The translations under genes and the position numbers were made by a program. Below are positions 11,420-38,900 of a stretch of DNA of 64,000 nt, piece after piece. Location: positions 19,526 to 83,525 of the IMG/VR virus record IMGVR_UViG_3300017963_005353; one strand, 5' to 3'. How positions within the stretch are numbered: position 1 is the stretch's first letter; each line of letters starts with the position of its first letter. The stretch comes from a virus. Below the pieces are notes generated by a model, which saw only the letters and a program-made list of their open reading frames with translations, was not told the origin of the DNA and ran no database searches.

Positions 11420-12679
11420 GTGGAAGATCCAAGAATCTCTGTTATTGGCCTGGGCAAGTTGGGCACGCCCATGGCCGTGGCAATGGCGGCGCGGGGGTAT
11501 ACCGTCATTGGCACCGACAAAAACCCCCAGACGGTAGCAGCGTTCAAGGGAGGCTGGCTGCCACGGTCCCCAAAGGAGGAGCCCGGCCTGGCCGAGGCCC
11601 TGGCAGCGGCCAACGGACGATTGGCCGTCACGGACAGCACGGCTGACGCCGTGGCGAACACCGATGTAACGTTCATCATCGTGCCCACACCGAGCGGGGA
11701 CGATGGCACGTTCGTCAACGATTACGTTCTGGCGGCCTGCTGCGGGGTGGCCCAGGGCATGGCCCGCAAAGACGCTTGGCACTTGGTCGTGCTCACGTCC
11801 ACGGTCATGCCCGGCTCTGCCCCACTCATCATACAGGCTTTGGAGCAAACCGGTCTCAAGCAGGGCGAGCACTTTGGCTACTGCTACTCCCCTCTGTTCA
11901 TCGCCCTGGGCAACGTGCTAAACGGGTTTCTGCAACCCGACATGATCCTGGTCGGTGCGGCCAGCCCGCTTGCCGGCGCCGAGCTCTCGGAGCTATACCG
12001 TGGCATATGTAAGGACTGCCCCCCCATAGTGTTGACAGACCCACTAACGGCCGAGTTTGCCAAGCTCTTGCTCAACTCCTTCCTGACCACAAAGATCACC
12101 TTTGCCAACTACATCGGCTGGATCGCCCATGAGACAGGAGCAAAGGCAGCAGACATCACCAGGCTGATCGGGCTCGACAGTCGTGTGAGCCCGAAGTTTT
12201 TCTCCCATGGGCCGCCCTTTGGCGGTCCCTGCTTTCCCCGCGACAACGTGGCCCTGGCAGCCTACCTGGGAGAGCACGACCTCTCCAACTGCTTTCCCCT
12301 GTGTGTGGACGATTTGAACTTTGAGGGCGCAATGCGGCTGGCGAATGTGGTAGAGGAGCACTCAGGGCGAGATGGAACCGTCGCCATCCTGGGCATGAGC
12401 TACAAGACCGGCTCCCCGGTGATGAACGATTCTCCATCACTCATCGTCCAGGAGTTCTTGGACGTCAGGGGGATCAACGTGGTCACGACCGACCCGTGGT
12501 TGGATGGCCCATCCCCGGAGGAGGCCATACAGGGGGCGGACGTGGTGCTGGTCATGCACAGGGACGAGCGGTACACACGGCTGCCGTTCGAACCCGGGCA
12601 GGTCATCGTTGACCCATGGAACCAGTTTGAGTACCAGCCCCCAGGCACCCACCTGGTCAAGATTGGAGGCGGCCCGTGA
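11420..12679 (+). CDS. UDP-glucose/GDP-mannose 6-dehydrogenase family protein
   Basis: GLGKLG Rossmann motif, IIVPTP, STVMPG, AEFAKL, FGGPCFPRD catalytic Cys, GMSYK; GTG 11420 after AAGGAGG. Confidence 0.92.
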   Translation: MEDPRISVIGLGKLGTPMAVAMAARGYTVIGTDKNPQTVAAFKGGWLPRSPKEEPGLAEALAAANGRLAVTDSTADAVANTDVTFIIVPTPSGDDGTFVNDYVLAACCGVAQGMARKDAWHLVVLTSTVMPGSAPLIIQALEQTGLKQGEHFGYCYSPLFIALGNVLNGFLQPDMILVGAASPLAGAELSELYRGICKDCPPIVLTDPLTAEFAKLLLNSFLTTKITFANYIGWIAHETGAKAADITRLIGLDSRVSPKFFSHGPPFGGPCFPRDNVALAAYLGEHDLSNCFPLCVDDLNFEGAMRLANVVEEHSGRDGTVAILGMSYKTGSPVMNDSPSLIVQEFLDVRGINVVTTDPWLDGPSPEEAIQGADVVLVMHRDERYTRLPFEPGQVIVDPWNQFEYQPPGTHLVKIGGGP

Positions 12680-13659
12680 AAACCAAAGTTCTCGTCACCG
12701 GTGCAGGTGGATTTATTGGGTCCCACCTGGTCCGAAGGCTCAAGCGTGCAGGGTTTTGGGTGCGCGGGGTAGACCTGAAAAAGCCGCAGTGGTCGGTCTC
12801 GCTGGCCGACGATTTTTGGGTTGCCGACCTGCGCGACCCGGGCGTCGCCATGCGGGCGTTCAGTGGTATGCAGGATGCCTACTGCCTGGCGGCGGACATG
12901 GGGGGCATGGGGTTCATCAGCACGAACCATTGTACCGTTCTTCGGCACAATGCCCTGATCAACGTCAACTCCGCTGCGGCTGCTGCCGGGACCGGCCTGG
13001 CCCGGATGTTCTACTCCAGTTCCGCTTGTGTGTACCCTGAGTGCCTGCAAATGGAGACGGGGATCGTCGGCCTTAGGGAGTGTGATGCCTGGAAAGGGCG
13101 ACCGGATACCGCCTATGGCGTGGAGAAGCTGTTTGGCGAGGAGGTCTTTCGCCGGTTGGCCGGCGAGCATGGCGTAGACGTTCGGATCGCCCGGTTCCAC
13201 AACATCTATGGCCCACAGGGTAGCTGGAACGATGGGCGGGAAAAACTGCCTGCCGCTGCCTGTCGCAAGGTGGCCCTGGCGAAACTGAGCGGGAATCACA
13301 CTGTAGAGGTCTGGGGCGACGGGCAGGCCACCAGGAGCTTTTGCTACATCGACGACTGCCTGGACATGGTGCTCGGGCTCATGGATTCCGACCACGACCA
13401 ACCGATCAACGTAGGCTCTGACCGGGAGGTGAGCGTAGACGACATGTACCATATCGCCGCGCTTGCTGCCGGTATCGAGGTGGAGCTCAGGCATGTGGAA
13501 GGACCACAGGGGGTCCGGGGACGTAACGCTGACCTGGCCCTGGCCCGAAAGATCCTAAAATGGAATGGGGGCACTCCCCTCGAGGATGGCATGGCCCAGA
13601 CTTACCGGTGGATCGAGGCACAGGTCAGGGCATGGAAAGGGGGAGGAGAGGGGTGTTAG
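12676..13659 (+). CDS. NAD-dependent nucleotide-sugar epimerase (GDP-mannose 3',5'-epimerase-like)
   Basis: TGAGGFIG, LAADMGGMGFI, SSSACVYP, YGVEK, RFHNIYGP, GREKLPAAACRK, GPQGVRGRN. Confidence 0.9.
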   Translation: MKTKVLVTGAGGFIGSHLVRRLKRAGFWVRGVDLKKPQWSVSLADDFWVADLRDPGVAMRAFSGMQDAYCLAADMGGMGFISTNHCTVLRHNALINVNSAAAAAGTGLARMFYSSSACVYPECLQMETGIVGLRECDAWKGRPDTAYGVEKLFGEEVFRRLAGEHGVDVRIARFHNIYGPQGSWNDGREKLPAAACRKVALAKLSGNHTVEVWGDGQATRSFCYIDDCLDMVLGLMDSDHDQPINVGSDREVSVDDMYHIAALAAGIEVELRHVEGPQGVRGRNADLALARKILKWNGGTPLEDGMAQTYRWIEAQVRAWKGGGEGC

Positions 13660-13714
13660 ACACCAACTAAAAGTTAGAAATGGTTAGAAATTGTCCCATT
13701 CTGCCCTGTTTGTC

Positions 13715-13743
13715 TTGACAAAACGGGGCAGTTATGTTATACT
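13715..13743 (+). promoter_or_regulatory. sigma70-type promoter
   Basis: TTGACA-17-TATACT with extended TG, upstream of GAGGAG and ATG 13782. Confidence 0.8.
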
Positions 13744-13781
13744 GTAGTTGTGGACAGAATCACCGTTTGAGGAGACCAGAC

Positions 13782-14357
13782 ATGACCAGAGAAGAGACAC
13801 AAAGCAACAACATCCTTTCCGCATTGATCTTGGCAGTATCCAGAGGCTCCGGGCATTGGCGGGATCGCCAGCCCTTCCAGGCGTTCAAGCTCTTTAGCTC
13901 TGGAAAGTTTGAGCAAGTGGACGAGGCCAATTTCGACGCCGCCATTGAGTTCATGCGCGAGCGCCGGTTCCAGCCTTTTGGTTTCTGGATTCATGGAGGC
14001 CCGGCCATCGCCTTCTCTGTCGGGGCCAACGCCGTGGTTCAAGCCTGGCGCAAGGCGCATGGCGACGACCCGATCATGGCCGCCCCGCTCGCCTTCCATA
14101 GGCGCGACTGGTGGGAGGCCAAAAGGGGCCGGTCGGGATATGTCGGCACCAGCGCGATCGTGGTCGGGAATTGGGTGATCGCACCGACCAGGACCGGGGC
14201 AGAGATCGCCCGGCTGAGAAGCCAGTATCCCGGTTACGCCGGCGACCTGGCGCTCGTTCCTCTCTATGTCATCAGGCGCGAGCACGACGAGCGATGCGAG
14301 CGGGAGATCCGGGCCGGTGGGCGGGGCGCACTTGCCTGGGCCAGCACCAGAGGATGA
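13782..14357 (+). CDS. hypothetical protein
   Basis: Own promoter and RBS; ~191 aa. Confidence 0.65.
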   Translation: MTREETQSNNILSALILAVSRGSGHWRDRQPFQAFKLFSSGKFEQVDEANFDAAIEFMRERRFQPFGFWIHGGPAIAFSVGANAVVQAWRKAHGDDPIMAAPLAFHRRDWWEAKRGRSGYVGTSAIVVGNWVIAPTRTGAEIARLRSQYPGYAGDLALVPLYVIRREHDERCEREIRAGGRGALAWASTRG

Positions 14358-14363
14358 CAGACA

Positions 14364-14549
14364 ATGACCAGGAGAGCCGTGAGGATCAGGTGGCAAATGG
14401 GACCGGAGGACTATGGGTCCCTCGCCAATCAGGTCGTGACCAACATCCACATTGATGACCAGGGGTACGCCTTTGGCTCGTGGAACGGTCGCCTTGTGGG
14501 GGCCTACCACGTGGACAGCTTTGTGTGGTACGTGATCGACTGGCTGTAG
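14364..14549 (+). CDS. small hypothetical protein
   Basis: 61 aa; follows the previous gene and ends at the terminator. Confidence 0.5.
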   Translation: MTRRAVRIRWQMGPEDYGSLANQVVTNIHIDDQGYAFGSWNGRLVGAYHVDSFVWYVIDWL

Positions 14550-14603
14550 AAAAAAACAGAGCCGGCGCATCGGGAGTATCAACTCACCCCCTTGGCCGGC
14601 TCT
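14550..14603 (-). terminator. intrinsic terminator hairpin
   Basis: AGAGCCGGC/GCCGGCTCT stem followed by GTTTTTTT on the minus strand. Confidence 0.7.
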
Positions 14604-14619
14604 CGTCAGAGGAGGGACA
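14550..14619 (-). ncRNA. candidate ~70-nt small RNA
   Basis: Promoter 14625-14653 directly upstream and terminator directly downstream, with no credible ORF between. Confidence 0.5.
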
Positions 14620-14624
14620 AATCT

Positions 14625-14653
14625 ATTCTACCACAGGTTGTCTACTCTGTCAA
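14625..14653 (-). promoter_or_regulatory. sigma70-type promoter
   Basis: TTGACA-17-TAGAAT with TGTGG before the -10. Confidence 0.7.
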
Positions 14654-15121
14654 ATTGAGCCCTGTACTTGTCATACAGGACAAGTGCATGGGACAACCGC
14701 CCTCTAGCGAGCAAAAAGGACAATCCCCGCACTCCCCGATCCACGCCCACTGCCCAGGAATCCCATCGTTCTCCAGGCAACAGAGCATCATTTGAAACTG
14801 GCTTTGCACCACCCACCCTTGCCTCTCGACGTGCTTCAGGTGCCCGTCGAAAGGCTCCGGGTCTTGCTCGAGGGCGAACCCGAGCTCGGCCTGTAGCCCA
14901 TGCCCATGCCATGCCCGGCCCACCGCCCCGGTCGGTACGTGGAGCTCAGGCGGGGGCGTCACGTCCAGCAGGGGCACGTCGCCATCCGTGTCAAGATAAA
15001 GCGTCCACGTGTTTCGCCCCGTCAGCTTGTGGAACACGAACACGACGCCCTTGTCTGACCCCAGGGCATCGGGGTAGTGCAAGGCAAAGCCCCGCTCGAA
15101 ATTGACTTGAAACGCCCTCAC
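14642..15121 (-). CDS. hypothetical protein with Cys-rich C-terminus
   Basis: GTG 15121 after GGAGGT and a promoter at 15144-15171; CGDCPFC...CPMH. Confidence 0.55.
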   Translation of the reverse strand: MRAFQVNFERGFALHYPDALGSDKGVVFVFHKLTGRNTWTLYLDTDGDVPLLDVTPPPELHVPTGAVGRAWHGHGLQAELGFALEQDPEPFDGHLKHVERQGWVVQSQFQMMLCCLENDGIPGQWAWIGECGDCPFCSLEGGCPMHLSCMTSTGLNLTE

Positions 15122-15143
15122 TGGAATCACCTCCCTGGCTATA

Positions 15144-15171
15144 ATTCTACCAGGATAATGGAGGGCGTCAA
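15144..15171 (-). promoter_or_regulatory. sigma70-type promoter
   Basis: TTGACG-16-TAGAAT with extended TG. Confidence 0.55.
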
Positions 15172-16553
15172 GTGTCAAGTTCCCCTTGGGGAGCACTCCA
15201 GGTGAAAATCGTCTGTACCTTGTCCACGGCCGGCTCCCTACCCAGGGCGGCCAGCATCTCCGGGTAGCCCAGGTAGTCGTTGGGAATCTCGATCCCCGGC
15301 ACCCACTCGATGCGCTCCCGCTGGACCAGGCCGGCATCGGTCAGCCACGCCTCGATGATAAACCCGCCGATGACAACGTGCCAGCCTTTGCGCTTGGTCA
15401 GGGAGTTTGTCCCTTCGAAGCAGCCGCATTGCATCCCGGTGATGGGGCCGAAAACGCTCCAAAACGCGGTATGCAGGTGCCCGGCCAGCACGAACCGCAG
15501 GCTTGGGTTTTCCTTGAGCCCGTAGATCAGATTCATGAGCTCGCCGAAACTGTATTGCTCGATCCCCTTTTGCAGCTTGTAGGAAATGGCGTAGGCCCTG
15601 CCCCCGGTCATGTGCCACAGGCGGACGCTTGCCCGGTCTGTCAGGGGCACATCGGCCACGTCATACCCCAGGTAGACCACGTCGTCTCTGGACAAGGCAA
15701 AGACCTTCACGATGTCAGCCCCGCCCAACTTGAGATACGAAAAGTCGTGGTTTCCCCCGATGACATAGTAGGTCAAGCCTTCCAGGTGAGGGAGAGTCAT
15801 GTCGAGCACGATCAATTGCTGGTCTGCCCCCACCGCCCACAGGTCGTTTAACTGCCCCCTGTAGACGTTGTGCCCCGCCACCAGGTCGCCGGGCACAAAG
15901 ATGTGCCGGATACCGGCATCGTAACAGCACTGGATAAACGCCCGGGTATTGGTGATCTGTTGGGCGGTGCTGCCGGCGTGCAGGTCGGTGGCAACCCCAA
16001 AGGGGCAGTAATGCCCCGTCATTTCAGCCAGGGGAGTGGGGATCTGCTGCGCCACGTCTACAGTTGGGGCCGTCTCGGTGTCGAGCCGGACCGTGGTTTC
16101 CGTGGCGACGATGGGGAACCCCTCTGCTGCCAGTTCATCCACTATCGCCCTAATAGTCGGCTCCGAGCGGTCAAACTGGCGCGAGAGTTGCTCGAGCGTC
16201 ACATTCTCGTTCTTGATGATCCCCCTGATCTCCTCTTTCAAAAGCGCGTGGGTGTCCACGGCCTCATCGGGGGGGATCTCCAGGGGGACGACCGGTGCCC
16301 CGCTTGGCTTGGGGGCATCGTCCTGTTTGCCGTTCAGGTGTGCCTTGCCTGGCGGCTTGGCATACCCGTATCTGCGCCTTGCCCGTGTTACCGCTATCTT
16401 GGTGGCTTTGACGCCCGCTTTTTGGAGCATCTCGGCCACCTCCCGGTCAGAGTGGGTGCGATAAACTTTTCCGAGCCACTGGTGGAGAGCGATGACCTGC
16501 TCCCCGTGCCTTATAGTGGCTTCCCAATCAACGCCTTCCTTTCGTGTGAGCAT
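15168..16553 (-). CDS. calcineurin-like metallophosphoesterase with N-terminal HTH-like domains
   Basis: ATDLH, GDLVAG, GGNHD, LWH, LAGHLH motifs; HTH-like N-terminus. Confidence 0.85.
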   Translation of the reverse strand: MLTRKEGVDWEATIRHGEQVIALHQWLGKVYRTHSDREVAEMLQKAGVKATKIAVTRARRRYGYAKPPGKAHLNGKQDDAPKPSGAPVVPLEIPPDEAVDTHALLKEEIRGIIKNENVTLEQLSRQFDRSEPTIRAIVDELAAEGFPIVATETTVRLDTETAPTVDVAQQIPTPLAEMTGHYCPFGVATDLHAGSTAQQITNTRAFIQCCYDAGIRHIFVPGDLVAGHNVYRGQLNDLWAVGADQQLIVLDMTLPHLEGLTYYVIGGNHDFSYLKLGGADIVKVFALSRDDVVYLGYDVADVPLTDRASVRLWHMTGGRAYAISYKLQKGIEQYSFGELMNLIYGLKENPSLRFVLAGHLHTAFWSVFGPITGMQCGCFEGTNSLTKRKGWHVVIGGFIIEAWLTDAGLVQRERIEWVPGIEIPNDYLGYPEMLAALGREPAVDKVQTIFTWSAPQGELDT

Positions 16554-17361
16554 CCCTAGTCCCTCCTTGCTTTTCTGTGATGTTTAGGTTTGCGCTCATG
16601 GTCCACAGGCACGAATCGGTTGTCCCCTCCCCATGCCTGGGGCGCTCGGTTTGCCAAAGGTTGTTGTTGTAGTACCACAGCGCGTCCGGGGTCTGTGGGC
16701 TGTCTGCTTGGTGAACGGCCAGCACCGCGTCTGTGGCGTCCACGGTCTCAAACGCCTTGCGGCCGGCGGTCAACAGCAGGTAATTGTCCCATGCGGCCTT
16801 GCCGACGATGTAGGGGGCCAGGTCGGGCACCGTTCCCCTCCTGAACAAAAACCAGTCGAGCCCCGCCGGGCCGTGCAATGCCCCTGTGGACCTGGCATAC
16901 TGCTCTAGCCTCTCTTGCCAACGTGCCCCGAAATTGAGTGTCTGCCCAGTCAAGGTGGGCACATCCCATCGCTGCCCGACAACCATGAAGGGCGCGATCG
17001 TGAACCTGGCGTGCACCGCTTCTACCATCTCCATAAAGCCTCTGACCAGGATGATGTCGGCGTTGATATAGCATGCCAGGGAAGTAGTTGCCATGGCCTG
17101 GGCGTCTCTGAAAAGGGCGTGAAGGTAGGGAGGACCGTTTCGGTGCCGGGCCACGCCTGGGCGATGCAAGACCTCAAGCTCGCCGGTCATGCGTCGTGAG
17201 CCATAATCGTCGCCAAACACAACGATGGTCGGGCGCGGGTGAAGGAGGGTCCAACTTTTTATGGCGTTCCACTGTGCCGCCGCGTCATCGCCTCGCCAGG
17301 GCTTGCACGTGGTAAAGAGTGTGACGTTAGATTTCAATTTCAACGATGTCGGCATTGGCAA
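16528..17361 (-). CDS. glycosyltransferase-like protein (GT-A fold)
   Basis: FTTCKP, QWNAIKSW, YINADII, VGQRWD, WDN motifs. Confidence 0.7.
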   Translation of the reverse strand: MPMPTSLKLKSNVTLFTTCKPWRGDDAAAQWNAIKSWTLLHPRPTIVVFGDDYGSRRMTGELEVLHRPGVARHRNGPPYLHALFRDAQAMATTSLACYINADIILVRGFMEMVEAVHARFTIAPFMVVGQRWDVPTLTGQTLNFGARWQERLEQYARSTGALHGPAGLDWFLFRRGTVPDLAPYIVGKAAWDNYLLLTAGRKAFETVDATDAVLAVHQADSPQTPDALWYYNNNLWQTERPRHGEGTTDSCLWTMSANLNITEKQGGTRDAHTKGRR

Positions 17362-18244
17362 AGCCCCAATTTTCGTCGTTCGGCGTCCGGCTTTTCCCGG
17401 TCCGGAGCATCAGCTTTTTCCAGGGCTCAAATTCGGTCAACAGGTTGATGACCGGATAGGGGTATTCGGCCTTAACAGCGTCGAGCCCCACGAGTGCCTT
17501 GTCGTGGCACAGGTGGTACATGGGATGAGGGATGCAGTGCTCCCCATATCCCTCGGCACGGGCCATGAAGAGCAAAAGGCTATCAATGTGGGGGCTCCAG
17601 CGTCCTAATTCCGGGTAGCCCTTGAGGGCTGCCCAGGCGTCCCGGTGCAACATGGTAAAATCCCCACAGGCATCGGTGAAAACATCGTCCTTTCCGGGAG
17701 GTGCGTTGTGCTCCTCCGTTACATGCTCTCGCAAAGCCTCCAGCCATACGTCCACCATATAAGGATTGAGCAATTCGGGTGGATCGGAGACCCGTCGCAG
17801 GTTTGTGTCAAAGCGGGGGGCTCGATAGTACAGCCTCTCGTCCAGGTGCCCCTTGGCGTCAGCGGTTGCCAGCCATGCCACCAATTCGTGAGAGTAGAGC
17901 AGGTCGGCGTTGGTGCACAGCACCCACTTGCCTCTTGCCCGCCTAATCCCGCAGTTCTTGGCCTGCATCTGAAAGAACGGTATGATGTGGGAGTTCTCAA
18001 CCTGATCGTGGACCTCTTTGGGCACCAACAAGATCCGGATTTTGGCCTGCTTGCCCTTCGGCCAGCGAATGGCGTCTTTGAGCAACGGGCGGTCAGGGGG
18101 CGGGTTCCATTCCACGACCACAAGCTCCATGTCGAGCCCGTGCTTTTGTGCCTGCCACGTTATACCGGAGATGAATGCCTGGTTGCGATGCAGGCTGTCC
18201 CCATCATAGGCGTCATTGCGGGTCGCTGTCACGATGCTGATCAT
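17327..18244 (-). CDS. glycosyltransferase family 2-like protein
   Basis: ISIVTATRND, VVVEWNP, KNCGIRRARG, TNADLL, CGDF, W..LKGYPE. Confidence 0.8.
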   Translation of the reverse strand: MISIVTATRNDAYDGDSLHRNQAFISGITWQAQKHGLDMELVVVEWNPPPDRPLLKDAIRWPKGKQAKIRILLVPKEVHDQVENSHIIPFFQMQAKNCGIRRARGKWVLCTNADLLYSHELVAWLATADAKGHLDERLYYRAPRFDTNLRRVSDPPELLNPYMVDVWLEALREHVTEEHNAPPGKDDVFTDACGDFTMLHRDAWAALKGYPELGRWSPHIDSLLLFMARAEGYGEHCIPHPMYHLCHDKALVGLDAVKAEYPYPVINLLTEFEPWKKLMLRTGKSRTPNDENWGFANADIVEIEI

Positions 18245-18410
18245 TCGTTAGCTCCTGTGGGAATGGCGAGCGGATAATGGTTCCTTCGGTCGGGTCGTAA
18301 CGCACGACCTCCAGCCCCGTCTTACCGGTGGCCACGTGTATGGCGAAAATAGGTTCGTCGTCGGTCAGCACCAGATTAAGACCATCTCGAATTTGCTTCC
18401 AGGTCATCAT
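18213..18410 (-). CDS. small hypothetical protein
   Basis: Fills the gap between the MTase and the GT, overlapping both. Confidence 0.45.
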   Translation of the reverse strand: MMTWKQIRDGLNLVLTDDEPIFAIHVATGKTGLEVVRYDPTEGTIIRSPFPQELTNDQHRDSDPQ

Positions 18411-19318
18411 CACCCTATCCTCAAAGGCATCGGCTTCATAAGCCCCACGCGCTTGAGGCTTGGGTCTGCCACGGCGTCGATGAGCAAATGCCAGCCAAAA
18501 TGCCGTTCCAGCCAGCGAAAGACCGGGGGTGGGATCCGCTGCCAGTACCACTCTTTGACGTATTCCCCTCTGATGTAGGCGGGGATTTGATACGGGAAAA
18601 TGTGGTCAACGCGCATCCTTGTGACCCTGAGCCCGTGGTCCTCCAGGTAGAGACGGGCCTGTCGCTGGGTGTAGGTTCGCGTGATGGGACAGCCGGTCTG
18701 GGCCTCCGAATGTCGGGCCACGATCCGGTCGAGCGTTGCCAAGGGCAGGACCAGCCGCAACAGGTTCCATCCCCTGAGCAAGATCCAAAGCACCTTCCAT
18801 GAGACCTTGTGGTACAGCATCAGTTTCATGGTACTGTCAGGCCCCATGTACTCACGCAGGTTATAAAGTGCCGCCTGGGGATAGGGCGTGTGGTGGAGCA
18901 CCCCGAACGAGTATACCAGATCAAACGGTTCTTCTGGGGGGAAATAACGGGTGAGCTCCTCCAGAGGGAGCGTCATAAAGCGGATACTGCCCATCGTGTG
19001 TGTGACAACCGCCCGCTTTCTTGCGATCTCGATGGATTTCGGGGACAGATCCACGGCGACTACCTGGGCGCCCGCCTCAGCAAACGAGAGTGCCATAGTG
19101 CCAATGCCACAACCGGCGTCGAGCACCCTCTTGCCCTGCCACCTATCGAACTCGCTAAAGTCAACAATGTGGGGCTCGACCCGATATTTCCGGGCGGTCA
19201 CTGCCCGGCTGTACGCCAAGGGGTCGGTGTCAACGTCAATGTCGCCCCCGTGCCGCACGTTGCAGGGCCTTGCATCCCAATAGTCTCGCACGTCAACGAT
19301 GGTCGGGTGTCGTCTCAT
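18410..19318 (-). CDS. class I SAM-dependent methyltransferase
   Basis: VLDAGCGIG, VDLS, FDLVYSFGVLHH. Confidence 0.9.
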   Translation of the reverse strand: MRRHPTIVDVRDYWDARPCNVRHGGDIDVDTDPLAYSRAVTARKYRVEPHIVDFSEFDRWQGKRVLDAGCGIGTMALSFAEAGAQVVAVDLSPKSIEIARKRAVVTHTMGSIRFMTLPLEELTRYFPPEEPFDLVYSFGVLHHTPYPQAALYNLREYMGPDSTMKLMLYHKVSWKVLWILLRGWNLLRLVLPLATLDRIVARHSEAQTGCPITRTYTQRQARLYLEDHGLRVTRMRVDHIFPYQIPAYIRGEYVKEWYWQRIPPPVFRWLERHFGWHLLIDAVADPSLKRVGLMKPMPLRIG

Positions 19319-24121: not shown

Positions 24122-24291
24122 CTGTGCCAGCCCCTCCTATCTTGCACGGGAAACAACAGACCGAGCCCCAGGTAGAGCACAGCCAGGAGCAAGGTTGCTA
24201 GGCAAGCGGGTAGACGATGACGCTTTCGCCCGGATTGGCGGGCACGTGCATGTTCTCCAGGGTCCATGAAAGAGAACGGGTGAATAACCAT
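24118..24291 (-). CDS. 57-aa single-TM protein (absent from the ORF track)
   Basis: AGGAGG then ATG 24291; MVIHPF...LATLLLAVLYLGLGLLF...; ATGA overlap with the carbamoyltransferase. Confidence 0.55.
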   Translation of the reverse strand: MVIHPFSFMDPGEHARARQSGRKRHRLPACLATLLLAVLYLGLGLLFPVQDRRGWHR

Positions 24292-24303
24292 GTCAAGAGC
24301 CTC

Positions 24304-25137
24304 CTAACAGTCCAGTTCATGTTTCAACGACCTCCACAAAATTTCAGCCATCCACGGATAGGCATCAGGCTCCGGGTGCCCCATGTCCTGGAAATAGGGC
24401 ACACCCTGGGCGAGTGTGTTGACCGCCATTCCCGCCCACATGTTGCACAGGGGCACATCTAACGCCTCTGCTGCCCGGCGGCAAACTTCGTTGCGCTTCA
24501 ATATCTTGTCCAGGTGTTTGGCGGCTGTAGCGTGAAAATCATCGTTGCCCCAGAACCGGCGCAAACAGCCCTCCAGGTGGGCGTTGCCGGGCCGTTCCCG
24601 GGAGCCACCGGCTGAGGGGAGAATATAAGAGGTCCAGTCCTCCTTGATCGTAAGCTCATTGAGCAGGCTAGGCATGGTCACAAACATGGGGCCGGGCAGG
24701 TCGGCAACCCGTTTCCACAAGCCGAGGTCTCGATCCCAACCTTGCCAACCGTGCCAGCCGGGCAGGGTGACGTTGTGGTCTATGGCGATCTCGGCGTTTC
24801 TCCGCTCCATCAGATCCACAAGCTCGTGAAACCGTATGCCCTCCACGCCCCCGTTGAAAAACTGGATGGACGGACAAAACTTCTCGAGCATGTCTACCCA
24901 GGTGCGCCGACCCTGTCCAAATACCACCGAGTCGCCCCACACCACAGCCAGGGGGCGGCTATAGTCTCGATCCTGGAGCGAGCGGAAACCCAGGTCGTTC
25001 ATGCGAAAAAGAGTGACAGCATCCTTGTAGCAGACGCGCACGTTCCGGGCGGTCTCCATTGCCACAGGGTCCCAATAGTGGCTTTTGGTGAATCGCCCGT
25101 CCGTTTCGCCTTTCCACATGCAGACTTTATCAGCCAT
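24304..25137 (-). CDS. SGNH/GDSL hydrolase or acyltransferase
   Basis: WGDSVVFG, NGGVEG, DMGHP. Confidence 0.8.
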   Translation of the reverse strand: MADKVCMWKGETDGRFTKSHYWDPVAMETARNVRVCYKDAVTLFRMNDLGFRSLQDRDYSRPLAVVWGDSVVFGQGRRTWVDMLEKFCPSIQFFNGGVEGIRFHELVDLMERRNAEIAIDHNVTLPGWHGWQGWDRDLGLWKRVADLPGPMFVTMPSLLNELTIKEDWTSYILPSAGGSRERPGNAHLEGCLRRFWGNDDFHATAAKHLDKILKRNEVCRRAAEALDVPLCNMWAGMAVNTLAQGVPYFQDMGHPEPDAYPWMAEILWRSLKHELDC

Positions 25138-25870
25138 GCTTGTGCCCTTCCTTGAGCCACCATTCGGCTGCGCTTGCATCGAGCAGGTTGTGAATATCCC
25201 GGCCGGCAAGCCAGGTGCGAACGATAGGCTTGCACTTTTCGCCCATCCACCACCAGGGGCTCACCGTGTCGTCCTTATGCCCCGCGCACCTGGCACGAAA
25301 GGCCCACAACCCTTGGTCGAAATAGTAGGCCAGGGGATAACTCTGACGGTTTGTAGATTGTTCCGGCGATGCTCCCGCAAGGTGCTCCCGCCCAGGGTAA
25401 ACAGTCAAAAGCCCGTTCTCACCTATGGCGAGCGACCGCAAGGGGTGATCGTCCTGTGCCTGCCACACACTCATCACGCTGTCCAATGTGGGATCATCCT
25501 CCAGCATCTCCAGGGCGCGATCCACGAGCGGGGCGTCAATCATCACCCCGTTGCCGATCATGATGACCACGTTTTCCAGGGCGTTGTGCTGTTCCCAAAC
25601 CTTTCTCACGGCAAAGGCAATGGCGTCTCCGTGGTTTGCATCCGGGGCGGTGAGCACTTCTGGCTCCCAGATGGTTTGTGCGCCATATTCACCGGCCAGG
25701 GCCGCGATGATATTGGAATCGGTGAGGCAAAACACACCTTCCACTCGATCAGCCGTTGCGGCAGCGGCTAGAGCATAGATCACGCAGGGAAGGCCGGCGA
25801 TGGGCATGATGTTCTTCCGGGGGATGCTCTGGCTCTGGCCTTTTGCAGTGATGATCGCCGCGTTTTTCAT
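25130..25870 (-). CDS. cytidylyltransferase (NeuA/KdsB-like CMP-sugar synthetase)
   Basis: IITAKGQSQSIPRKNI, LTDS, RDIH. Confidence 0.85.
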   Translation of the reverse strand: MKNAAIITAKGQSQSIPRKNIMPIAGLPCVIYALAAAATADRVEGVFCLTDSNIIAALAGEYGAQTIWEPEVLTAPDANHGDAIAFAVRKVWEQHNALENVVIMIGNGVMIDAPLVDRALEMLEDDPTLDSVMSVWQAQDDHPLRSLAIGENGLLTVYPGREHLAGASPEQSTNRQSYPLAYYFDQGLWAFRARCAGHKDDTVSPWWWMGEKCKPIVRTWLAGRDIHNLLDASAAEWWLKEGHKHG

Positions 25871-26847
25871 GCTGCCCCCTTTTGCAAACTGAAAGCCAGT
25901 TGCATGGCTCGTTTGGCATCTACAATGGACGCCATAGCAACGGGTTTTCCAGATTCAACCGCTTGACGAAACAGGTTCACTTCCCTGTGGAACGAATTGT
26001 TTGTCTCAAAAGTTTTTGTTTCAATGTCGGCGCTGGCGTCTCTCGGAATGGCAACGTAAGTGGCAGGGCTGTACCGCCCGGAGGGGGAGCAAAACCCGTT
26101 CAACTGAACGTTGCCGTTTGACAGGCCAATCTCGATACCATAGGACGGTTGGCTTGAGGCAGAAAAGTGGACAGAGGCCGATATGCCGGTTTTTGATCTC
26201 AGTAATGCGAATACGTTGTCGTCTACGGGGCAAGGGAAATGGTGGGTATCTACCAGGGAGGTCAAGCCCTGCAAGGTCTCGAACTCCTCACCGGTGAACC
26301 AGTAGAGGAGGTCCAGCACATGTATGCCCAGGTCGAGCAAAACACCGCCCCCTGACAGGAGCGGGATCTGTCGCCATAGGCCGGTGTGCCCGCTCGAGGT
26401 GTATTGCGCCCTGATCCATAGAGGTGTTCCATACCGGTGCTCCTGGATCGCCCGTTTCGCCAAAAGGACATGCTCATGCCAGCGGTGGTTAAAGCCGAAC
26501 ATGAGCACCAGGCCTGGATGAGACCCCAGGGTATCATCCATCAGTCTCAAGTCTGACAAGTTGCGACCTGGGGGCTTTTCGCAAAATACATGCTTGCCCT
26601 GGTCCAAGGCCCAGGCCACAACCGAGGCTTGCACGTTGTTGAACGCACAGGCAAACACGGCGTCAATGTCTCGGCGGGCGCACAGATCACGGTAGTCTGT
26701 GTGAAACTGTGAAGGAGCAATCATATGAAATCTCCCCAACTGCCTGGGGTCAATGTCGCAGACGGCGCCAATCTCAATGCCTACCTGCTGGCAGCATTGG
26801 GCGCGGATTTGTCCCATTTTGCCCAGGCCCACAATACCGACCCTCAC
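25867..26847 (-). CDS. Gfo/Idh/MocA oxidoreductase
   Basis: GLGKMG, KHVFCEKP, GFNHR, GGGVLLDLGIH. Confidence 0.92.
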   Translation of the reverse strand: MRVGIVGLGKMGQIRAQCCQQVGIEIGAVCDIDPRQLGRFHMIAPSQFHTDYRDLCARRDIDAVFACAFNNVQASVVAWALDQGKHVFCEKPPGRNLSDLRLMDDTLGSHPGLVLMFGFNHRWHEHVLLAKRAIQEHRYGTPLWIRAQYTSSGHTGLWRQIPLLSGGGVLLDLGIHVLDLLYWFTGEEFETLQGLTSLVDTHHFPCPVDDNVFALLRSKTGISASVHFSASSQPSYGIEIGLSNGNVQLNGFCSPSGRYSPATYVAIPRDASADIETKTFETNNSFHREVNLFRQAVESGKPVAMASIVDAKRAMQLAFSLQKGAA

Positions 26848-26865
26848 GGAAACCTCCTTGCCATA

Positions 26866-26894
26866 ATTATACCTGTTTGGCCGCTTTGCGTCAA
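26866..26894 (-). promoter_or_regulatory. sigma70-type promoter
   Basis: TTGACG-17-TATAAT upstream of AAGGAGG and GTG 26847. Confidence 0.7.
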
Positions 26895-27979
26895 GCCCCC
26901 AGGAATTCAGCGATCTCAGTTGTGCTCAGTTCGGTTTCAAACATCTCGCCCGGCCCGTGAGTGAGGATAGCGTTGACCACGCCCGGCTTGTTGCCCCGTT
27001 TTTTGTCCTGACCGAGAGCTTGAATCAAAGACTGGCCGGTCGGGAAGTCCACTCTAGAGCAAAACCCATGATAGACATTCCTGGCAATCTGTGTCATTTC
27101 ATGGCAGGTATCACGGCTCAGGTAGCCCTTTTCCCAGGAGATCTCACAGGCGATCTCAATGCCCCCGGCGACCGCGATGCCGTGGGGGATCTGTGGGTCA
27201 ACCGCCTCGATGGCATGGCCGAATGTATGCCCCCAATTGAGCAGTCGGCGCACGCCTGTGTCTCGCTCGTCTTGCATGATGTATTCGCGCTTGATCTGGA
27301 GCGTTGCCCTGGCAGCCTTGACAAGCTCATCGTGTGCATACTCCAGATCAGGGTCGAGCATGTTGCCCAAGGTGTCTTTGACCCATTTGTACCACTGTCC
27401 ACCCTGCACCATGAAAAAGTGGAGCATCTCGCCTATCCCTGATAGTTGCTCCAGGTGGGGGAGCGTCAGGAGAAATGAGCGGTCGATCAACACCACTTCA
27501 GGCGGCCAGATGGTGCCAATGATGTTTTTGTAGCCGCCCAGGTTGATGCTCGTTTTGCCCCCTATACAGCTATCGGCCTGGGCGAGCAAGGTCGTGGGGA
27601 AATAGACCCACTTGATGCCCCGCATATACACGCTGGCCGCAAACCCGCCCAGGTCCATAAGCGAGCCCCCACCGACGACAAAGAGCCTGTTTTGGCGGGA
27701 GACGCCCTTTTCCAGGAACTCTGTTAGCAGGGAAACAACGTGGGTCAGGGTTTTTATCTGTCTACCCAGGCCCTCGAATGGTGGGCAGATAAAGGCTCTC
27801 TCAGCCTGTATGAGATCGTCAATCTGCTCTGAGTATCCATGGTAGATTGCGGGGTCGATCATCACCGGGTCCCCAGGGGCGATCAGGCTTTCCAGTGCAT
27901 CGAGCCAATTGCCGGTTTCTTGTATGGTGTAGTCTTGCACCTGGCTTGAGATTGCCAGCTTGAACTCATTGTCGGACAT
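26891..27979 (-). CDS. sugar-phosphate cyclase (3-dehydroquinate synthase / AroB-related)
   Basis: GGGSLMDLGGF, PTTLLAQADSCIGGK, KNIIG, GEMLH, LNWGHTFGHAIE, HGIAV. Confidence 0.88.
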   Translation of the reverse strand: MSDNEFKLAISSQVQDYTIQETGNWLDALESLIAPGDPVMIDPAIYHGYSEQIDDLIQAERAFICPPFEGLGRQIKTLTHVVSLLTEFLEKGVSRQNRLFVVGGGSLMDLGGFAASVYMRGIKWVYFPTTLLAQADSCIGGKTSINLGGYKNIIGTIWPPEVVLIDRSFLLTLPHLEQLSGIGEMLHFFMVQGGQWYKWVKDTLGNMLDPDLEYAHDELVKAARATLQIKREYIMQDERDTGVRRLLNWGHTFGHAIEAVDPQIPHGIAVAGGIEIACEISWEKGYLSRDTCHEMTQIARNVYHGFCSRVDFPTGQSLIQALGQDKKRGNKPGVVNAILTHGPGEMFETELSTTEIAEFLGA

Positions 27980-28703
27980 TGTGAAACCCTCCATCTATAG
28001 TGATATTCTGTCCTGTGATGTACGTGTTCTCGTCGGAGCACAGCCAAACAACCAACCTGGCAATCTCCACTGGTTGAGCAAACCGACCAAGTGGGATCTG
28101 CAAGGCAAGTTCTCTTTGTTTCTGGGTCGTCAGGGTGCGGTCGGTGAGCTCTGTCTGAGTGAATCCAGGGCTGACCATGTTCACCAGCACCCCATGGGGA
28201 GCCATATCAGCGGCCATGGCTCGGATCATGCCCGCCAGCCCCGCCTTGGTGGCAGCGTACACACTCCGCCCCGTCTTACCGGTCTCTGCCCAGATGGAGC
28301 CAATGTTGACAATATGCCCACCATGCCCTTGGCGTTGCATGACCCGACACGCAGCCCTGGCGATGCTGAATGGGGCAATCAGATTGACGCGCATAAGCAT
28401 GTTGATCGTGTCGGTTTCGATTTTCCAGATGGGGGCATTGACGTTGGTGCCAGCGTTTTGGACCAGCACGTCTAACCGGTCGAGAGTATGTAAAAAGCCC
28501 TCACACATTTGCAGAATGTGTTGGGCGTTGTTGAAATCACATCTCACATACCTGTCGAGCCATGCTGGACATTTGGGAAACCTGATCTTTCCGGTGCCAA
28601 TAACCCGCGCTCCCCTCCCTTGGAGTTGGCTGGCGATGGCTTTACCTATACCCCTGGTCGCCCCGGTGACGATTGCCGTTTTACCGGTAAAATCCAGGCT
28701 CAT
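27966..28703 (-). CDS. short-chain dehydrogenase/reductase (FabG-like)
   Basis: TGATRGIG, NAG, YAATK, PG..T, IDGG. Confidence 0.92.
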   Translation of the reverse strand: MSLDFTGKTAIVTGATRGIGKAIASQLQGRGARVIGTGKIRFPKCPAWLDRYVRCDFNNAQHILQMCEGFLHTLDRLDVLVQNAGTNVNAPIWKIETDTINMLMRVNLIAPFSIARAACRVMQRQGHGGHIVNIGSIWAETGKTGRSVYAATKAGLAGMIRAMAADMAPHGVLVNMVSPGFTQTELTDRTLTTQKQRELALQIPLGRFAQPVEIARLVVWLCSDENTYITGQNITIDGGFHNVRQ

Positions 28704-29182
28704 GGTGCCCTCGCTGATTCCAGGGCGATCTCGTTGGCCTCGGGATTGGGGAACATCATAGACAACAGACTTGCCGCATCCTCGAAAAAGGAATCGTCCT
28801 CGGCCACCTCACCGGCCATCTTTTGCACAGCCCGGCCTAGGGCAACCGCCCGGCCCAGGGCATAGCAGAACTGGCGGGGTTCGGCCTCGGCCCGATCGTG
28901 GTACGGGGCAAAGGCCAGGGAATGACGCGCCCGCTCGAACACGGCAACGCCACAGAATTTGTCGCCCTGTGGGGTCGTCAGCAGGCAATAGGTTGCCCCG
29001 CCCATAGGGGAAACGTGGGCCGGTCTGGATTCGCGATCCTCCTTGCCGTTGCGGTAGTACCGCCTCAAGAGCCAGGGGCCTTCGGCTGAAACATCACTGA
29101 CCTGCCGGTAGTGGAAAAACCGCACGTCAATGCCCCGCTGTTGCAGAGCCTCCACCTCGGTGCCGACTTTCGATACTTTCAT
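28700..29182 (-). CDS. hypothetical phage protein
   Basis: ATG 29182 after AAGGA; GGATYC...GVA...F..ALGRAVALGRA. Confidence 0.6.
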   Translation of the reverse strand: MKVSKVGTEVEALQQRGIDVRFFHYRQVSDVSAEGPWLLRRYYRNGKEDRESRPAHVSPMGGATYCLLTTPQGDKFCGVAVFERARHSLAFAPYHDRAEAEPRQFCYALGRAVALGRAVQKMAGEVAEDDSFFEDAASLLSMMFPNPEANEIALESARAP

Positions 29183-29448
29183 TATTCTGTCCTTTCTTCT
29201 TGTAGTTCGTCTCTGACAAACGGGTCGGGATGGGTGCTCATGGACTGTGGGGGATGTGATTGACCAGCGGTGAACAACCACAGCTTTCCCCACAACAGGA
29301 ACATGATCCTATCTTTCCACGAGCCTTTCCAAAGGGCAACCCGGAGTCTGCCGGTGTCGTGAACGGGTAGGGGTTGCTCTGGCGATGGCGACATGTGTTC
29401 CGGCACCATCATGGTTCGCGTGGTTCCTGAAAAATTGACCGGCTTCAT
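29182..29448 (-). CDS. hypothetical phage protein
   Basis: 88 aa, coupled on both sides. Confidence 0.55.
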   Translation of the reverse strand: MKPVNFSGTTRTMMVPEHMSPSPEQPLPVHDTGRLRVALWKGSWKDRIMFLLWGKLWLFTAGQSHPPQSMSTHPDPFVRDELQEERTE

Positions 29449-29461
29449 TTTCTCATCCTTA

Positions 29462-29905
29462 TCAAGGCATCAACAGGGGCGATACAAGTGAAATTGTGGT
29501 CGCTGTCGGCGTCCGGGTTGGAGGTGCTGGTGTGCTGGTCGGTGTGTATGTTGGGAGATGGGGATCGGGTTGGGTTGGATAGGGTGTGTGGGTAGGAATA
29601 AGTGTGAAGGTGGGAATGACGATGGGTGTGTGAGTATGGCGACAAGTGGGAGATGGGGCGGGCGTGTATGGGGCCTGGGTGGGCTGCGGGGTCGGTGTGC
29701 GGGGATCAAACGGGCATCGGTCGAACCAGTCCGCCTGATCCCTGTTCGTCGCCCCTGTTGATCTCTTTATCTCTTGTGTCAGTGTGGCGATAGACTTGTC
29801 ATCCTCTTGGAGCGGGATGGCCGGGCTCACCACGAAAAAGGCCAGCACAGCCAGGAATACAGCAATGCACACTTTGCCTCCTCTAGGGAGCTTGTTCTGG
29901 GTCAT
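29462..29905 (-). CDS. exported Thr/Pro-rich (mucin-like) protein
   Basis: Signal peptide or TM then TPTPQPT/PTYTPTSTPAPPTRTPT low-complexity tail; GAGGTG RBS. Confidence 0.65.
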   Translation of the reverse strand: MTQNKLPRGGKVCIAVFLAVLAFFVVSPAIPLQEDDKSIATLTQEIKRSTGATNRDQADWFDRCPFDPRTPTPQPTQAPYTPAPSPTCRHTHTPIVIPTFTLIPTHTPYPTQPDPHLPTYTPTSTPAPPTRTPTATTISLVSPLLMP

Positions 29906-29914
29906 GCTTGCACC

Positions 29915-30883
29915 TCACACTACAAACTGCCATGAGTTACCGAGCAAAGTGGGCTCTTTCCTGCCCTCCAGGATAGCCTTCACACCCTCGACGGCTTGCC
30001 TTTCCATCTCCTGGCGCGTCTCGGCCGTCCACGATCCCAGGTGCCGGGTCAGGACCACATTTGGAAAAGCGGCCAACTGTCCCTGGTAGGGCTCTTGCTC
30101 GAACACGTCCAGCGCGGCGCCGGCGATGAGCCGTTCCTCCAGGGCCTTGACCAGAGCCTCTTCGTCCACCAGCCCACCCCTGGCAGTGTTGACCAGGTAG
30201 GCAGTCTCTTTCATGCGTGTGAGCTCATCGCGCCCGATCCAGCCCAGGGTTTCGTCGGTCAAGGGGAGATGGAGCAGCAAAAAATCTGACCGCCCGATCA
30301 ACTCATCCTTTGACACATACGTTAGGGCTGTACGCGCAGCCAGGTTTGTGTCTGGGGCCTTGTCATGTCCAAGCAGTTCGACATACCAGGGAAACAACAG
30401 CCTGGCGACCCTGGAGCCCACCTGTCCTACGCCAGCAATCCCGATGGCCTTGCCCCGAAGTAGGCTGCCAGCGAACGAAACAGCCGGGGGCCACTCGCCA
30501 CACCTGACCGCCCGGTCCGACAGGGAAATGCGCCGGGCCACGTCAACCATGAGCCCAATGGTGAGCTCTGCCACAGCAATGGCCGGGGCAGTGGGTGTGT
30601 TGAGCACCTTGATCCCCATTTGCTCACAAAGTTTCAGGTTCACGTTGTCTGTGCCGGTGCCGACCCTGGCGATGACTTTCAGTTGATTGTTGCCACTGAG
30701 CAGGGCTTCGTTCACAGGCTCAGTGCCAGCAATGTACCCATCGCAGTCCATCAGGGCGGCCCGCAATTCGTCGGGCCGCAGCTTGTCAAAGGTGGGTTCG
30801 TCAGGATAGAGCACCTCGAAACCGTAGCTTGTCAAAAAGGCCCGGGCCTCAAGTCCGACCCGGGTGTTGATCAGGATTCGCAT
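29915..30883 (-). CDS. D-isomer-specific 2-hydroxyacid dehydrogenase (SerA-like)
   Basis: RVGTGTDNV, GVGQVG, HLPLT, NTARGGLVDE, LDVFEQEP, HLG. Confidence 0.92.
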   Translation of the reverse strand: MRILINTRVGLEARAFLTSYGFEVLYPDEPTFDKLRPDELRAALMDCDGYIAGTEPVNEALLSGNNQLKVIARVGTGTDNVNLKLCEQMGIKVLNTPTAPAIAVAELTIGLMVDVARRISLSDRAVRCGEWPPAVSFAGSLLRGKAIGIAGVGQVGSRVARLLFPWYVELLGHDKAPDTNLAARTALTYVSKDELIGRSDFLLLHLPLTDETLGWIGRDELTRMKETAYLVNTARGGLVDEEALVKALEERLIAGAALDVFEQEPYQGQLAAFPNVVLTRHLGSWTAETRQEMERQAVEGVKAILEGRKEPTLLGNSWQFVV

Positions 30884-38899: not shown

Positions 38900-38900
38900 C

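Follow-up and report, generated by a model that had tools for sequence, protein, structure and literature searches.

Predicted glycan genes make up about a third of an environmental tailed phage genome and include a phage version of a bacterial CMP-sugar cassette

Background

Why would a tailed phage carry a long run of sugar enzymes, what would they make, and where would the product be placed? The question is raised by a 64,000-nt stretch of environmental viral DNA (hereafter the window), positions 19526-83525 of the 83,525-bp IMG/VR virus record IMGVR_UViG_3300017963_005353, in which a preliminary description made from the letters alone had read positions 11420-30883 as a viral pathway for making, activating, transferring and decorating an unusual sugar or cyclitol. 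Coordinates below are those of the window unless marked as genome coordinates, which refer to the whole record. Over the whole genome, predicted glycan genes form three blocks totalling about 28 kb of 83.5 kb (about one third), with nine predicted glycosyltransferases (GTs): block A lies upstream of the window among the virion genes, and blocks B+ (plus strand) and B- (minus strand), 16.7 kb together, lie within it.

Glycosylation of the particle by virus-encoded enzymes is established in giant viruses and a few mycobacteriophages, and in phages it is considered rare and simple. New here are the scale of the gene set relative to genome size, the conservation of a GT island within the capsid-tail genes, and a phage-borne version of a cytidine monophosphate (CMP)-sugar cassette joined to tailoring genes of carbamoyl-, sulfo-, methyl-, SGNH- and transglutaminase type.

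Glycan blocks in a complete phage genome

The record has direct terminal repeats, measured at 123 bp, and an estimated completeness of 100%. PHROG and Pfam searches place the following virion and packaging genes on it, and the 83.5-kb element is a complete tailed phage of environmental origin.

Genome 2699-3991: major-head-protein-like gene (weak match)
Genome 15534-16298: head-tail adaptor
Window 634-3099: tape measure
Window 58407-59141: small terminase
Window 59083-60714: large terminase
Window 61001-63577: portal / head-morphogenesis protein

The record is metagenome-derived, and the glycan genes could in principle be host DNA that chimeric assembly or contamination has fused to a phage contig. 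The phage sequence is present in runs from metagenomes of sediment, seawater and estuary. Two of these runs, possibly from the source sample itself or from related ones, each contain a single 83,431-bp contig of flat depth (78x and 72x) that shows zero differences from window positions 7000-26999, an interval spanning tail genes and cluster, and every sampled word of positions 24000-32500, including the right edge of the cluster, is present in both. Runs of two further studies contain 100%-identical pieces at low depth from the tail genes and the cluster, one of them extending across positions 10914-11963. The GC content of the glycan block (0.56-0.60) is that of the structural genes, and the first two genes of the window's glycan set follow the tail genes in a relative of this phage as well. 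Read coverage had been proposed as the check for a join with host DNA; no join was seen, a chimeric join is very unlikely, and we regard the chance of an artefact as negligible.

The largest new finding concerns the block outside the window.

Genome 4342-15576, plus strand: block A (11 kb), lying 3.9-15.2 kb ahead of the window with the capsid-like gene on one side and the head-tail adaptor gene on the other (Pfam/PHROG assignments), encoding in order an RmlD-like reductase, a DegT aminotransferase, two GT2 enzymes, a Glyco_trans_1_2 protein, two GT4 enzymes and a GT2-like enzyme

No near-identical DNA was found among 50,697 phage records, and two more distant relatives are informative. One, a 47-kb fragment (G001), carries the entire block A in the same order at 52-74% identity, much like its structural proteins, and likewise has the dehydrogenase-epimerase pair of block B+ after its tail genes. 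The other (G005), a full genome of 70.7 kb that ends in terminal repeats, has 35% GC and a capsid protein 62% identical to that of the present phage; its block A genes, at 29-42% identity and with 9 kb of extra genes in segments of 3 kb (G005 43.8-46.8 kb) and 6.3 kb (51.6-58.0 kb), again lie between capsid and adaptor, while neither the cyclase nor a match to any other B- protein was found in it. Because block A is syntenic in both relatives and G005 lacks B- proteins, block A is an old trait of the lineage and block B- an accessory insertion into a DNA-metabolism operon. Block B- measures 14.4 kb, not far from the 12.8 kb by which this genome exceeds that of G005. A search for direct repeats around the block revealed no att-like or insertion-boundary repeats.

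One tail protein (7027-9495) is 67% identical to its counterpart in G001 (L086:9995-13096) in the N-terminal half only, the C-terminal half having been replaced, as expected of a host-range determinant.

A phage version of a bacterial cassette

The centre of block B- is formed by five genes.

25130-25870, minus strand: cytidylyltransferase of the CMP-sugar synthetase family (CTP_transf_3 32.5 bits, cut-off 22.6)
25867-26847, minus strand: Gfo/Idh/MocA oxidoreductase (three Pfam domains; IolG model 104 bits; PDB inositol 2-dehydrogenase 93 bits)
26891-27994, minus strand: AroB-like NAD/Zn sugar-phosphate lyase or cyclase with an ExxH signature (TIGR04425 293 bits; aroB 245 bits)
27966-28703, minus strand: classical short-chain dehydrogenase/reductase (SDR) ketoreductase, overlapping the cyclase gene (adh_short_C2 180 bits)
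29915-30883, minus strand: D-2-hydroxyacid dehydrogenase, similar to phosphoglycerate dehydrogenase and 2-ketoaldonate reductase (2-Hacid_dh_C 175 bits)

Among proteins of solved structure, the hydroxyacid dehydrogenase is closest to phosphoglycerate dehydrogenase 1wwk (192 bits; 2-ketogluconate reductase 156 bits). The best PDB matches of the cytidylyltransferase are NeuA proteins (E 2e-12); the PseF model gives it 60 bits, and the PseF and KdsB equivalog models both score far under their cut-offs.

Homologs of the same five families, with a sixth protein of the SIS family (about 187 aa), keep a fixed order around cyclase homologs from metagenomes and metagenome-assembled genomes (MAGs). In the 27 well-covered loci the cyclase was recovered 26 times, the CMP-transferase 23, the 2-hydroxyacid dehydrogenase 21, the Gfo/Idh/MocA oxidoreductase and the SDR 20 each, and the SIS protein, which matches GmhA phosphoheptose isomerases, 19 times; these loci have no other conserved neighbour gene. 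In 72 of the 84 loci fetched, the gene immediately upstream of the cyclase encodes an SDR homolog. MAGs with the cassette belong to Gemmatimonadota, Omnitrophota, Bacteroidota, Planctomycetota, Margulisiibacteriota and Acidobacteriota, and in one polysaccharide locus (L039) its genes run in the same direction as neighbouring genes for methyltransferases, a hexapeptide acyltransferase and a Wzx flippase. Searches of the literature turned up no account of this cassette or of phage-borne genes resembling dehydroquinate synthase (DHQS).

The phage shares with the cellular cassette, which surrounds enzymes of model TIGR04425 ('AroB-related putative sugar phosphate phospholyase (cyclizing)'), all five families, the position of the SDR gene immediately before that of the cyclase, the ExxH signature and the linkage to a CMP-transferase, and its other four core genes lie on the same strand within 4 kb of the cyclase gene, as in the metagenome and MAG loci. 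It differs in the placement of the Gfo and CMP-transferase genes, in having no SIS gene, in a cyclase that scores under the model's cut-off, in the low identity of its core proteins to the cellular ones (27-47%, with 27-39% for syntenic Gfo homologs), in the separate long branch of its cyclase, and in the carbamoyl-, sulfo- and methyltransferases joined to it. The phage core is a five-gene version of a six-gene bacterial cassette; the core pathway is no viral invention, the cassette being widespread in bacteria. A 160-aa ORF inside the phage cassette (28700-29182, minus strand, without Pfam or PHROG match) was considered as the SIS counterpart and rejected, being dissimilar to the cellular SIS protein.

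The cyclase relates to AroB and other sugar-phosphate cyclases in having both Pfam DHQS domains and the NAD/Zn site (130-142 bits to solved DHQS structures), and differs from AroB in its CMP-sugar context, with no other shikimate gene seen and no match to a DAHP (3-deoxy-D-arabino-heptulosonate 7-phosphate) synthase. It scores 245 bits with the aroB model TIGR01357, under the cut-off of 305. Active-site residues were located by motif and numbered after Aspergillus DHQS; 12 of the 13 positions are retained, the exception being the lysine of ExxK, which is replaced by histidine. This ExxH signature, a product of the present analysis and not a curated motif, occurs in the phage enzyme, its five closest relatives and 15 of 16 sampled homologs linked to Gfo or hydroxyacid dehydrogenase genes, with lysine in four loci that have no cassette. 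Since the retained residues include those that bind the carboxylate and the phosphate in DHQS, the substrate of the phage enzyme is probably a phosphorylated ulosonic acid like DAHP rather than a neutral sugar phosphate.

Five sequences on short contigs (P0002-P0006) are 49-81% identical to the phage cyclase, and all others are at most 42% identical; to any cellular sequence the identity is at most 39-42%. In a maximum-likelihood tree the phage enzyme and these five group together (support 100/99) at the end of a long stem, placed among the SDR-linked enzymes, away from the AroB-like sequences that have no cassette, and outside every cellular group. Recent host capture of the cyclase gene is ruled out by this tree, because the gene forms a deep clade of its own and is not nested in a cellular group. 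Near-identical nesting within one host glycan locus had been named as an observation that would speak against a viral pathway, and nothing of the kind was found. Together with the complete record and its terminal repeats, the separate clade upholds the earlier view that the set is virus-encoded and not an intact captured lipopolysaccharide (LPS) locus.

Comparable cyclases are rare in viruses. A tblastn search of the 50,697 phage records returned only matches of at most 40% identity, apparently host aroB genes in records that are contaminated or include a prophage, and scanning viral contigs for the cyclase as a single-protein pattern gave no match. Only one other viral contig with an ExxH-type cassette was found (G002; 34% GC, 22% complete). 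This putatively viral contig encodes, at L002:7914-16560, a GT29-like sialyltransferase, a SIS protein, an SDR, a His-type cyclase and a CMP-transferase, along with a PIG-L deacetylase and a sulfotransferase-GT2 fusion, and upstream a PRK/aldolase fusion; the GT29-like enzyme and the sulfotransferase-GT2 fusion flanking its cassette fit a CMP-donor glycan that is also sulfated. A 167-kb viral record has a different arrangement (L118, G003:C1:147000-166912), with a DegT gene, an unassigned gene, an SDR, a Lys-type AroB-like cyclase, a thiamine pyrophosphate-dependent enzyme and a methyltransferase, which may represent an aminocyclitol-like pathway in a large phage.

The remaining glycan genes of the window

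Around the core lie the genes that would transfer and decorate its product. Assignments through Pfam, NCBIfam or PDB sequence searches are graded strong; the others come from structure or feature comparisons (TM, template modelling score; pLDDT, predicted local distance difference test) or from sub-threshold scores.

11342-12679, plus strand: NDP-sugar 6-dehydrogenase of the UDP-Glc/GDP-Man dehydrogenase family (three Pfam domains; TIGR03026 247 bits, cut-off 190; PDB 3vtf 192 bits, AlgD 136 bits; G001 copy 48% identical)
12676-13659, plus strand: GDP-mannose 3,5-epimerase-like SDR (PDB 2c59 298 bits, E 6e-88, residues 3-324; G001 copy 65% identical)
13734-14357, plus strand: small ORF without Pfam or PHROG family (third-position GC, GC3, 0.73), with a sigma-70-like site in front (13715-13743)
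15168-16553, minus strand: SbcD/Mre11-like exonuclease with an N-terminal helix-turn-helix, left boundary and no glycan gene (PHROG 7339 E 7e-8; Metallophos 21.9 bits)
16528-17361, minus strand: GT-A-like GT without Pfam match (Atlas features 0.99; structure TM 0.85-0.87 to GT clusters)
17327-18244, minus strand: probable GT2 enzyme, weak (Glycos_transf_2 20.2 bits, under the cut-off of 23.3; no meaningful match in the PDB sequence search)
18410-19318, minus strand: class I S-adenosylmethionine (SAM) methyltransferase (Methyltransf_23/25/12/11, 59-63 bits)
19315-20193, minus strand: transglutaminase-fold enzyme with a Cys-His-Asp triad (74 remote homologs; model pLDDT 94.5)
20190-21194, minus strand: probable GT-B enzyme, GT1/GT4-like, weak (Glyco_trans_1_4 19.2 bits and Glycos_transf_1 17.9 bits, both under the Pfam cut-off, which is 27 for the ~19-bit GT1 match; no meaningful match in the PDB sequence search)
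21448-22248, minus strand: sulfotransferase-fold protein without Pfam match (Atlas features 0.96; TM 0.62-0.72 to Sulfotransfer_1/3 clusters)
22424-24121, minus strand: O-carbamoyltransferase of the NodU/CmcH/TobZ family (Carbam_trans_N 224 bits and Carbam_trans_C 200 bits, both above cut-off; PDB NovN 263, GdmN 249, TobZ 222 bits)
24304-25137, minus strand: SGNH-motif protein (GDS at residues 68-70 and DxxH at 251-254, invariant in 4 sequences)
29462-29905, minus strand: uncertain ORF with a hydrophobic segment (residues 6-24), a Pro/Thr-rich tail and a weak coding signal (GC3 0.60)
31437-32087, minus strand: Cas4/RecE-like exonuclease, right boundary and no glycan gene (PHROG 1706 E 5e-10; PHROG 1990 E 6e-8)
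32087-32115, minus strand: perfect sigma-70 promoter TTGACA-17-TATAAT reading leftward into the block (12/12 consensus matches)

At the family level, nearly every enzyme that the preliminary description had named in this region is there. Its three glycosyltransferases fared unevenly: the GT-A-like enzyme is supported, while the other two score below threshold and find no support in the PDB. The gene at 15168-16553, which may have been counted in the sugar block, encodes an exonuclease. As the SbcD-like and Cas4-like exonuclease genes bracket it, the minus-strand glycan block comprises positions 16528-30883; block B+ (11342-13659) follows directly after the tail genes.

The epimerase appears to be a full-length relative of GDP-mannose 3,5-epimerase that stands clearly above other SDR epimerases in similarity (298 bits with the Arabidopsis enzyme GME vs 84 bits with GDP-fucose synthase, the next family). 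The carbamoyltransferase was also considered as NodU itself and rejected (155 bits with the equivalog model, cut-off 1000). Residues C81, H113 and D133 of the transglutaminase-fold enzyme are conserved, and its model aligns (VIA-align) with the cores of TG2 and FXIII at Z 8.9, with PNGase at 8.2 and with arylamine N-acetyltransferase at 7.3, making it a putative acyl or amide transferase, or hydrolase. The SGNH-motif protein is called on motifs only: its Lipase_GDSL match has an E value of 0.16, just 3 homologs are known (70-80% identity), and an AlphaFold model from the 4-sequence alignment (pLDDT 37) was left unused. Its gene follows that of the CMP-transferase immediately, beginning 7 nt past the stop, an arrangement that recalls the SGNH esterase domain fused to the NeuA of E. 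coli K1. The tail of the uncertain ORF at 29462-29905 looks mucin-like; if the ORF is real, its product could be a membrane-anchored glycan acceptor.

The promoters had been noted earlier as phage-style; a scan counted 14 sigma-70-like sites in positions 13000-32900, against 7.0 +/- 2.9 expected, one of them the perfect consensus sequence flanked by the ParB and Cas4-like exonuclease genes. The large terminase shares 42% identity with its counterparts in Salinibacter ruber phages; a Bacteroidota-like host is nevertheless disfavoured because of the strong sigma-70-type promoters, and the host is probably Gram-negative-like.

A proposed route to the activated sugar

A route consistent with the core families would start from heptose 7-phosphate, provided by the GmhA-like protein in cells and by the host in the case of the phage. 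The Gfo-family enzyme would oxidise this sugar at C1 to an aldonate, and the hydroxyacid dehydrogenase would oxidise C2 to give a hept-2-ulosonate 7-phosphate, the 3-hydroxy analogue of DAHP. The AroB-like enzyme could then remove the phosphate by the NAD redox chemistry of DHQS, with or without closure of a carbocycle; the SDR would act either on the 6-keto intermediate, capturing it as a 7-deoxy-ulosonate, or on a carbocyclic product, whose ketone it would reduce, and the cytidylyltransferase would yield a CMP-activated donor, a seven-carbon acidic sugar or a cyclitol. Transfer and decoration of the sugars would fall to the rest of block B- (three GTs and the methyl-, carbamoyl-, sulfo-, SGNH-type and transglutaminase-fold enzymes), and the 6-dehydrogenase and epimerase of block B+ probably yield an L-configured GDP-hexose or GDP-hexuronate. 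The phage genome has no match to the DAHP/Kdo8P-synthase family, and no NeuB-type synthase was seen among the scanned proteins, no genome-wide search having been aimed at NeuB; an oxidative rather than an aldol route fits these absences. The cytidylyltransferase belongs to the same Pfam family as those of the CMP-sialic acid and CMP-Kdo pathways (NeuA, KdsB, PseF), and the pathway differs from them in having no KdsA-type match and no NeuB seen, its acid apparently arising by heptose oxidation.

The pathway had been called self-contained, which does not hold: the phage has neither an NDP-sugar pyrophosphorylase nor a GmhA-like isomerase, and it would therefore need GDP-mannose, heptose phosphate, 3'-phosphoadenosine 5'-phosphosulfate (PAPS), carbamoyl phosphate and SAM from the host.

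In the most far-reaching version of this chemistry, the AroB-like enzyme would cyclise its substrate, and a CMP-activated carbocyclic 'carba-ulosonic' acid would be built into a sulfated, carbamoylated and methylated glycan that coats capsid and tail. We consider this quite unlikely; if true, it would be the first carbasugar in a virus-made glycoconjugate and would provide a first function for the multi-phylum cassette. Whatever the product, the compact five-gene phage cassette lends itself to direct expression and assay, and through it the uncharacterised chemistry of the cassette becomes testable.

The same genes also call to mind clusters for aminoglycosides and C7N-cyclitols, given the DHQS-like cyclase, the DegT aminotransferase, the inositol-dehydrogenase-like Gfo enzyme, the GT4 enzymes and the carbamoyltransferase resembling TobZ and NovN. 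The product could then be a free pseudo-oligosaccharide, of aminocyclitol or C7-cyclitol type, acting on competitors or on the host. Such a small molecule is improbable, as the cyclase retains the carboxylate-binding residues of DHQS, unlike cyclases of neutral substrates, and is linked to a CMP-transferase of sialic acid/Kdo type; moreover, its cellular homologs occur beside a Wzx flippase gene, and no exporter or resistance gene was seen in the phage.

The acceptor of the glycan

Virion proteins, phage DNA and the host surface had all been proposed as targets. Block A, which lies outside the window, shifts the weight towards the first of these. The most likely acceptor is, with moderate confidence, a virion protein glycosylated in the cytoplasm, so that the particle would carry a decorated acidic glycan coat.

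No match to Wzx (Polysacc_synt), Wzy_C or Bac_transf was found in the 83.5-kb genome with positive controls, the WecA/MraY type (PF00953) not being included in the search; for these families the earlier statement that flippase, polymerase and initiating transferase are missing extends to the whole genome. None of the glycan blocks encodes a multi-pass membrane protein either. The GTs of the blocks are all soluble, and on account of both absences assembly of the glycan should be cytoplasmic. Virion proteins are favoured because block A keeps its place among the morphogenesis genes in relatives that differ widely in GC content: six phage-encoded GTs lie between the capsid and adaptor genes here, and the arrangement is syntenic in G001 and G005.

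The virion proteins themselves offer a possible lead. [S/T]-G-[S/T] occurs in them 30 times vs 10.0 expected from shuffled sequences (observed/expected 3.0), and in all other proteins 24 times vs 16.2 (1.5). Two tail proteins stand out, those at 3464-7024 (8 vs about 2.8) and 7027-9495 (11 vs about 2.7), and of the three sites in the capsid-like protein (residues 128, 266 and 351) two are invariant in four capsid homologs. The enrichment is suggestive only.

Several points weigh against a virion coat or against the chemistry proposed for it. The motif was chosen after the fact, and tail fibres are often rich in Gly, Ser and Thr, which weakens the enrichment; Ser/Thr-rich C-terminal tails of the mycobacteriophage type are lacking in the capsid and tube proteins (the latter encoded at genome 18387-19016). 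Block B- lies outside the late operon, in the company of helicase and nuclease genes and behind a host-type promoter of perfect consensus, a placement that would fit early expression and possibly a role directed at the host or at DNA. Gene families, synteny, completeness of the genome and the absences are observed directly; the acceptor is predicted from gene context, and the substrates and the order of the steps we infer on chemical grounds. The core cassette is uncharacterised in any organism, the best NCBIfam model for the phage cyclase (TIGR04425) gives 292.8 bits, under its cut-off of 400, no SIS_2 match that could stand for the GmhA-like gene exists anywhere in the phage genome, and two of the GTs of block B- are sub-threshold in Pfam.

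Part of this evidence bears on the host envelope, whose undecaprenyl-linked or lipid A-core intermediates the phage enzymes could modify for display by host flippases and ligases, giving an altered surface that blocks superinfection or keeps progeny off debris. Cellular homologs of the cassette do sit in Wzx-type surface-polysaccharide loci, block B- is placed behind a strong host-type promoter in an early-looking operon, the absence of a phage flippase is compatible with hijacked host export, and the same role has been proposed for many LPS-type genes of pelagimyophages (PMC7029224). Against these stand the lack of both tyrosine and serine integrases in the genome, which makes classical lysogenic conversion unlikely, and the lack of an initiating transferase (Bac_transf), flippase or polymerase match, within the limits of the search given above, as well as of a ligase. 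The position of block A, kept in relatives of 35% and 58% GC that presumably have different hosts, is also hard to reconcile with a host-specific chemistry. Remodelling of the envelope is a real possibility, if an unlikely one.

The neighbours of block B- could be taken instead to indicate sugars on phage DNA bases, which would evade restriction or CRISPR: the block is embedded among a split SNF2 helicase, a pair of IbrA/IbrB-like PAPS-reductase and ParB genes, and the Cas4-like and SbcD-like nucleases, and hypermodification of DNA with a variety of glycans is an established activity of phage GTs (preprint 10.1101/2023.12.21.572611). The genome, however, has no match to Thymidylat_synt, Tet_JBP or DNA_methylase (C5 cytosine) and no known route to a hydroxymethylated base, the sole methylase found being of Dam type; relatives have the IbrA/IbrB-helicase module without a glycan block. 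Nine GTs and six tailoring enzymes also go far beyond known DNA-glycosylation sets. DNA hypermodification is accordingly the target to which we attach very little probability. Glycosylation of virion proteins remains preferred, and if the coat is real it would suggest that environmental phages widely use glycans for shielding or adhesion.

Comparison with other viral glycosylation systems

Capsid and tail-tube subunits of mycobacteriophages are reported to carry glycans (Freeman et al. 2023, as cited in PMC12619734). The present phage resembles them in encoding soluble GTs and a methyltransferase, with capsid or tail proteins as presumed acceptors; it differs in its nine GTs, nucleotide-sugar synthesis and four kinds of decoration, in its lack of Ser/Thr-rich C-terminal tails, and in its probably Gram-negative-like host. 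Mycobacteriophages with glycosylated virions have few GT genes.

Among giant viruses, the Megavirinae have clade-specific glycosylation clusters of 6-33 genes, in which rare bacterial-type nucleotide-sugar pathways and GTs serve to decorate the particle (PMC10117803). Those are eukaryotic viruses with genomes of about a megabase, whereas here the glycan genes take up about a third of 83.5 kb and include a CMP-sugar or cyclitol route.

Pelagimyophages and cyanomyophages carry many GTs and a UDP-glucose 6-dehydrogenase near their tail-fibre genes (PMC7029224). They are larger, T4-like phages whose genes of this kind lie in a hypervariable region (mean 34-45 kb), in contrast to the syntenic GT island between capsid and adaptor described here. 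The many LPS-type genes of such marine myophages also contradict the earlier generalisation that phages usually carry one to three GTs.

Other genes of the window

To the right of block B-, positions 32112-36901 (minus strand) form an island of lower GC (0.49-0.50) with a ParB_N protein, an IbrA/IbrB-like protein of PAPS_reduct and DUF3440 domains, two unassigned ORFs and an SNF2 helicase in two ORFs. The IbrA/IbrB-helicase module occurs, without the glycan block, in other viral contigs (L106-L111) at 42-60% identity. No tRNA genes were found in the window.

Beyond the island, an operon on the plus strand (37326-41266) encodes six proteins that fall in no assigned family and have one to three hydrophobic segments each, the first ending in a winged-helix domain; the operon could serve in lysis or in the remodelling of membranes. 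Further on lie genes for a NUDIX hydrolase (41369-42013), the Dam-type N6-adenine methyltransferase (44442-45293) and a Gp3-like 'recombination directionality factor' (51891-53213).

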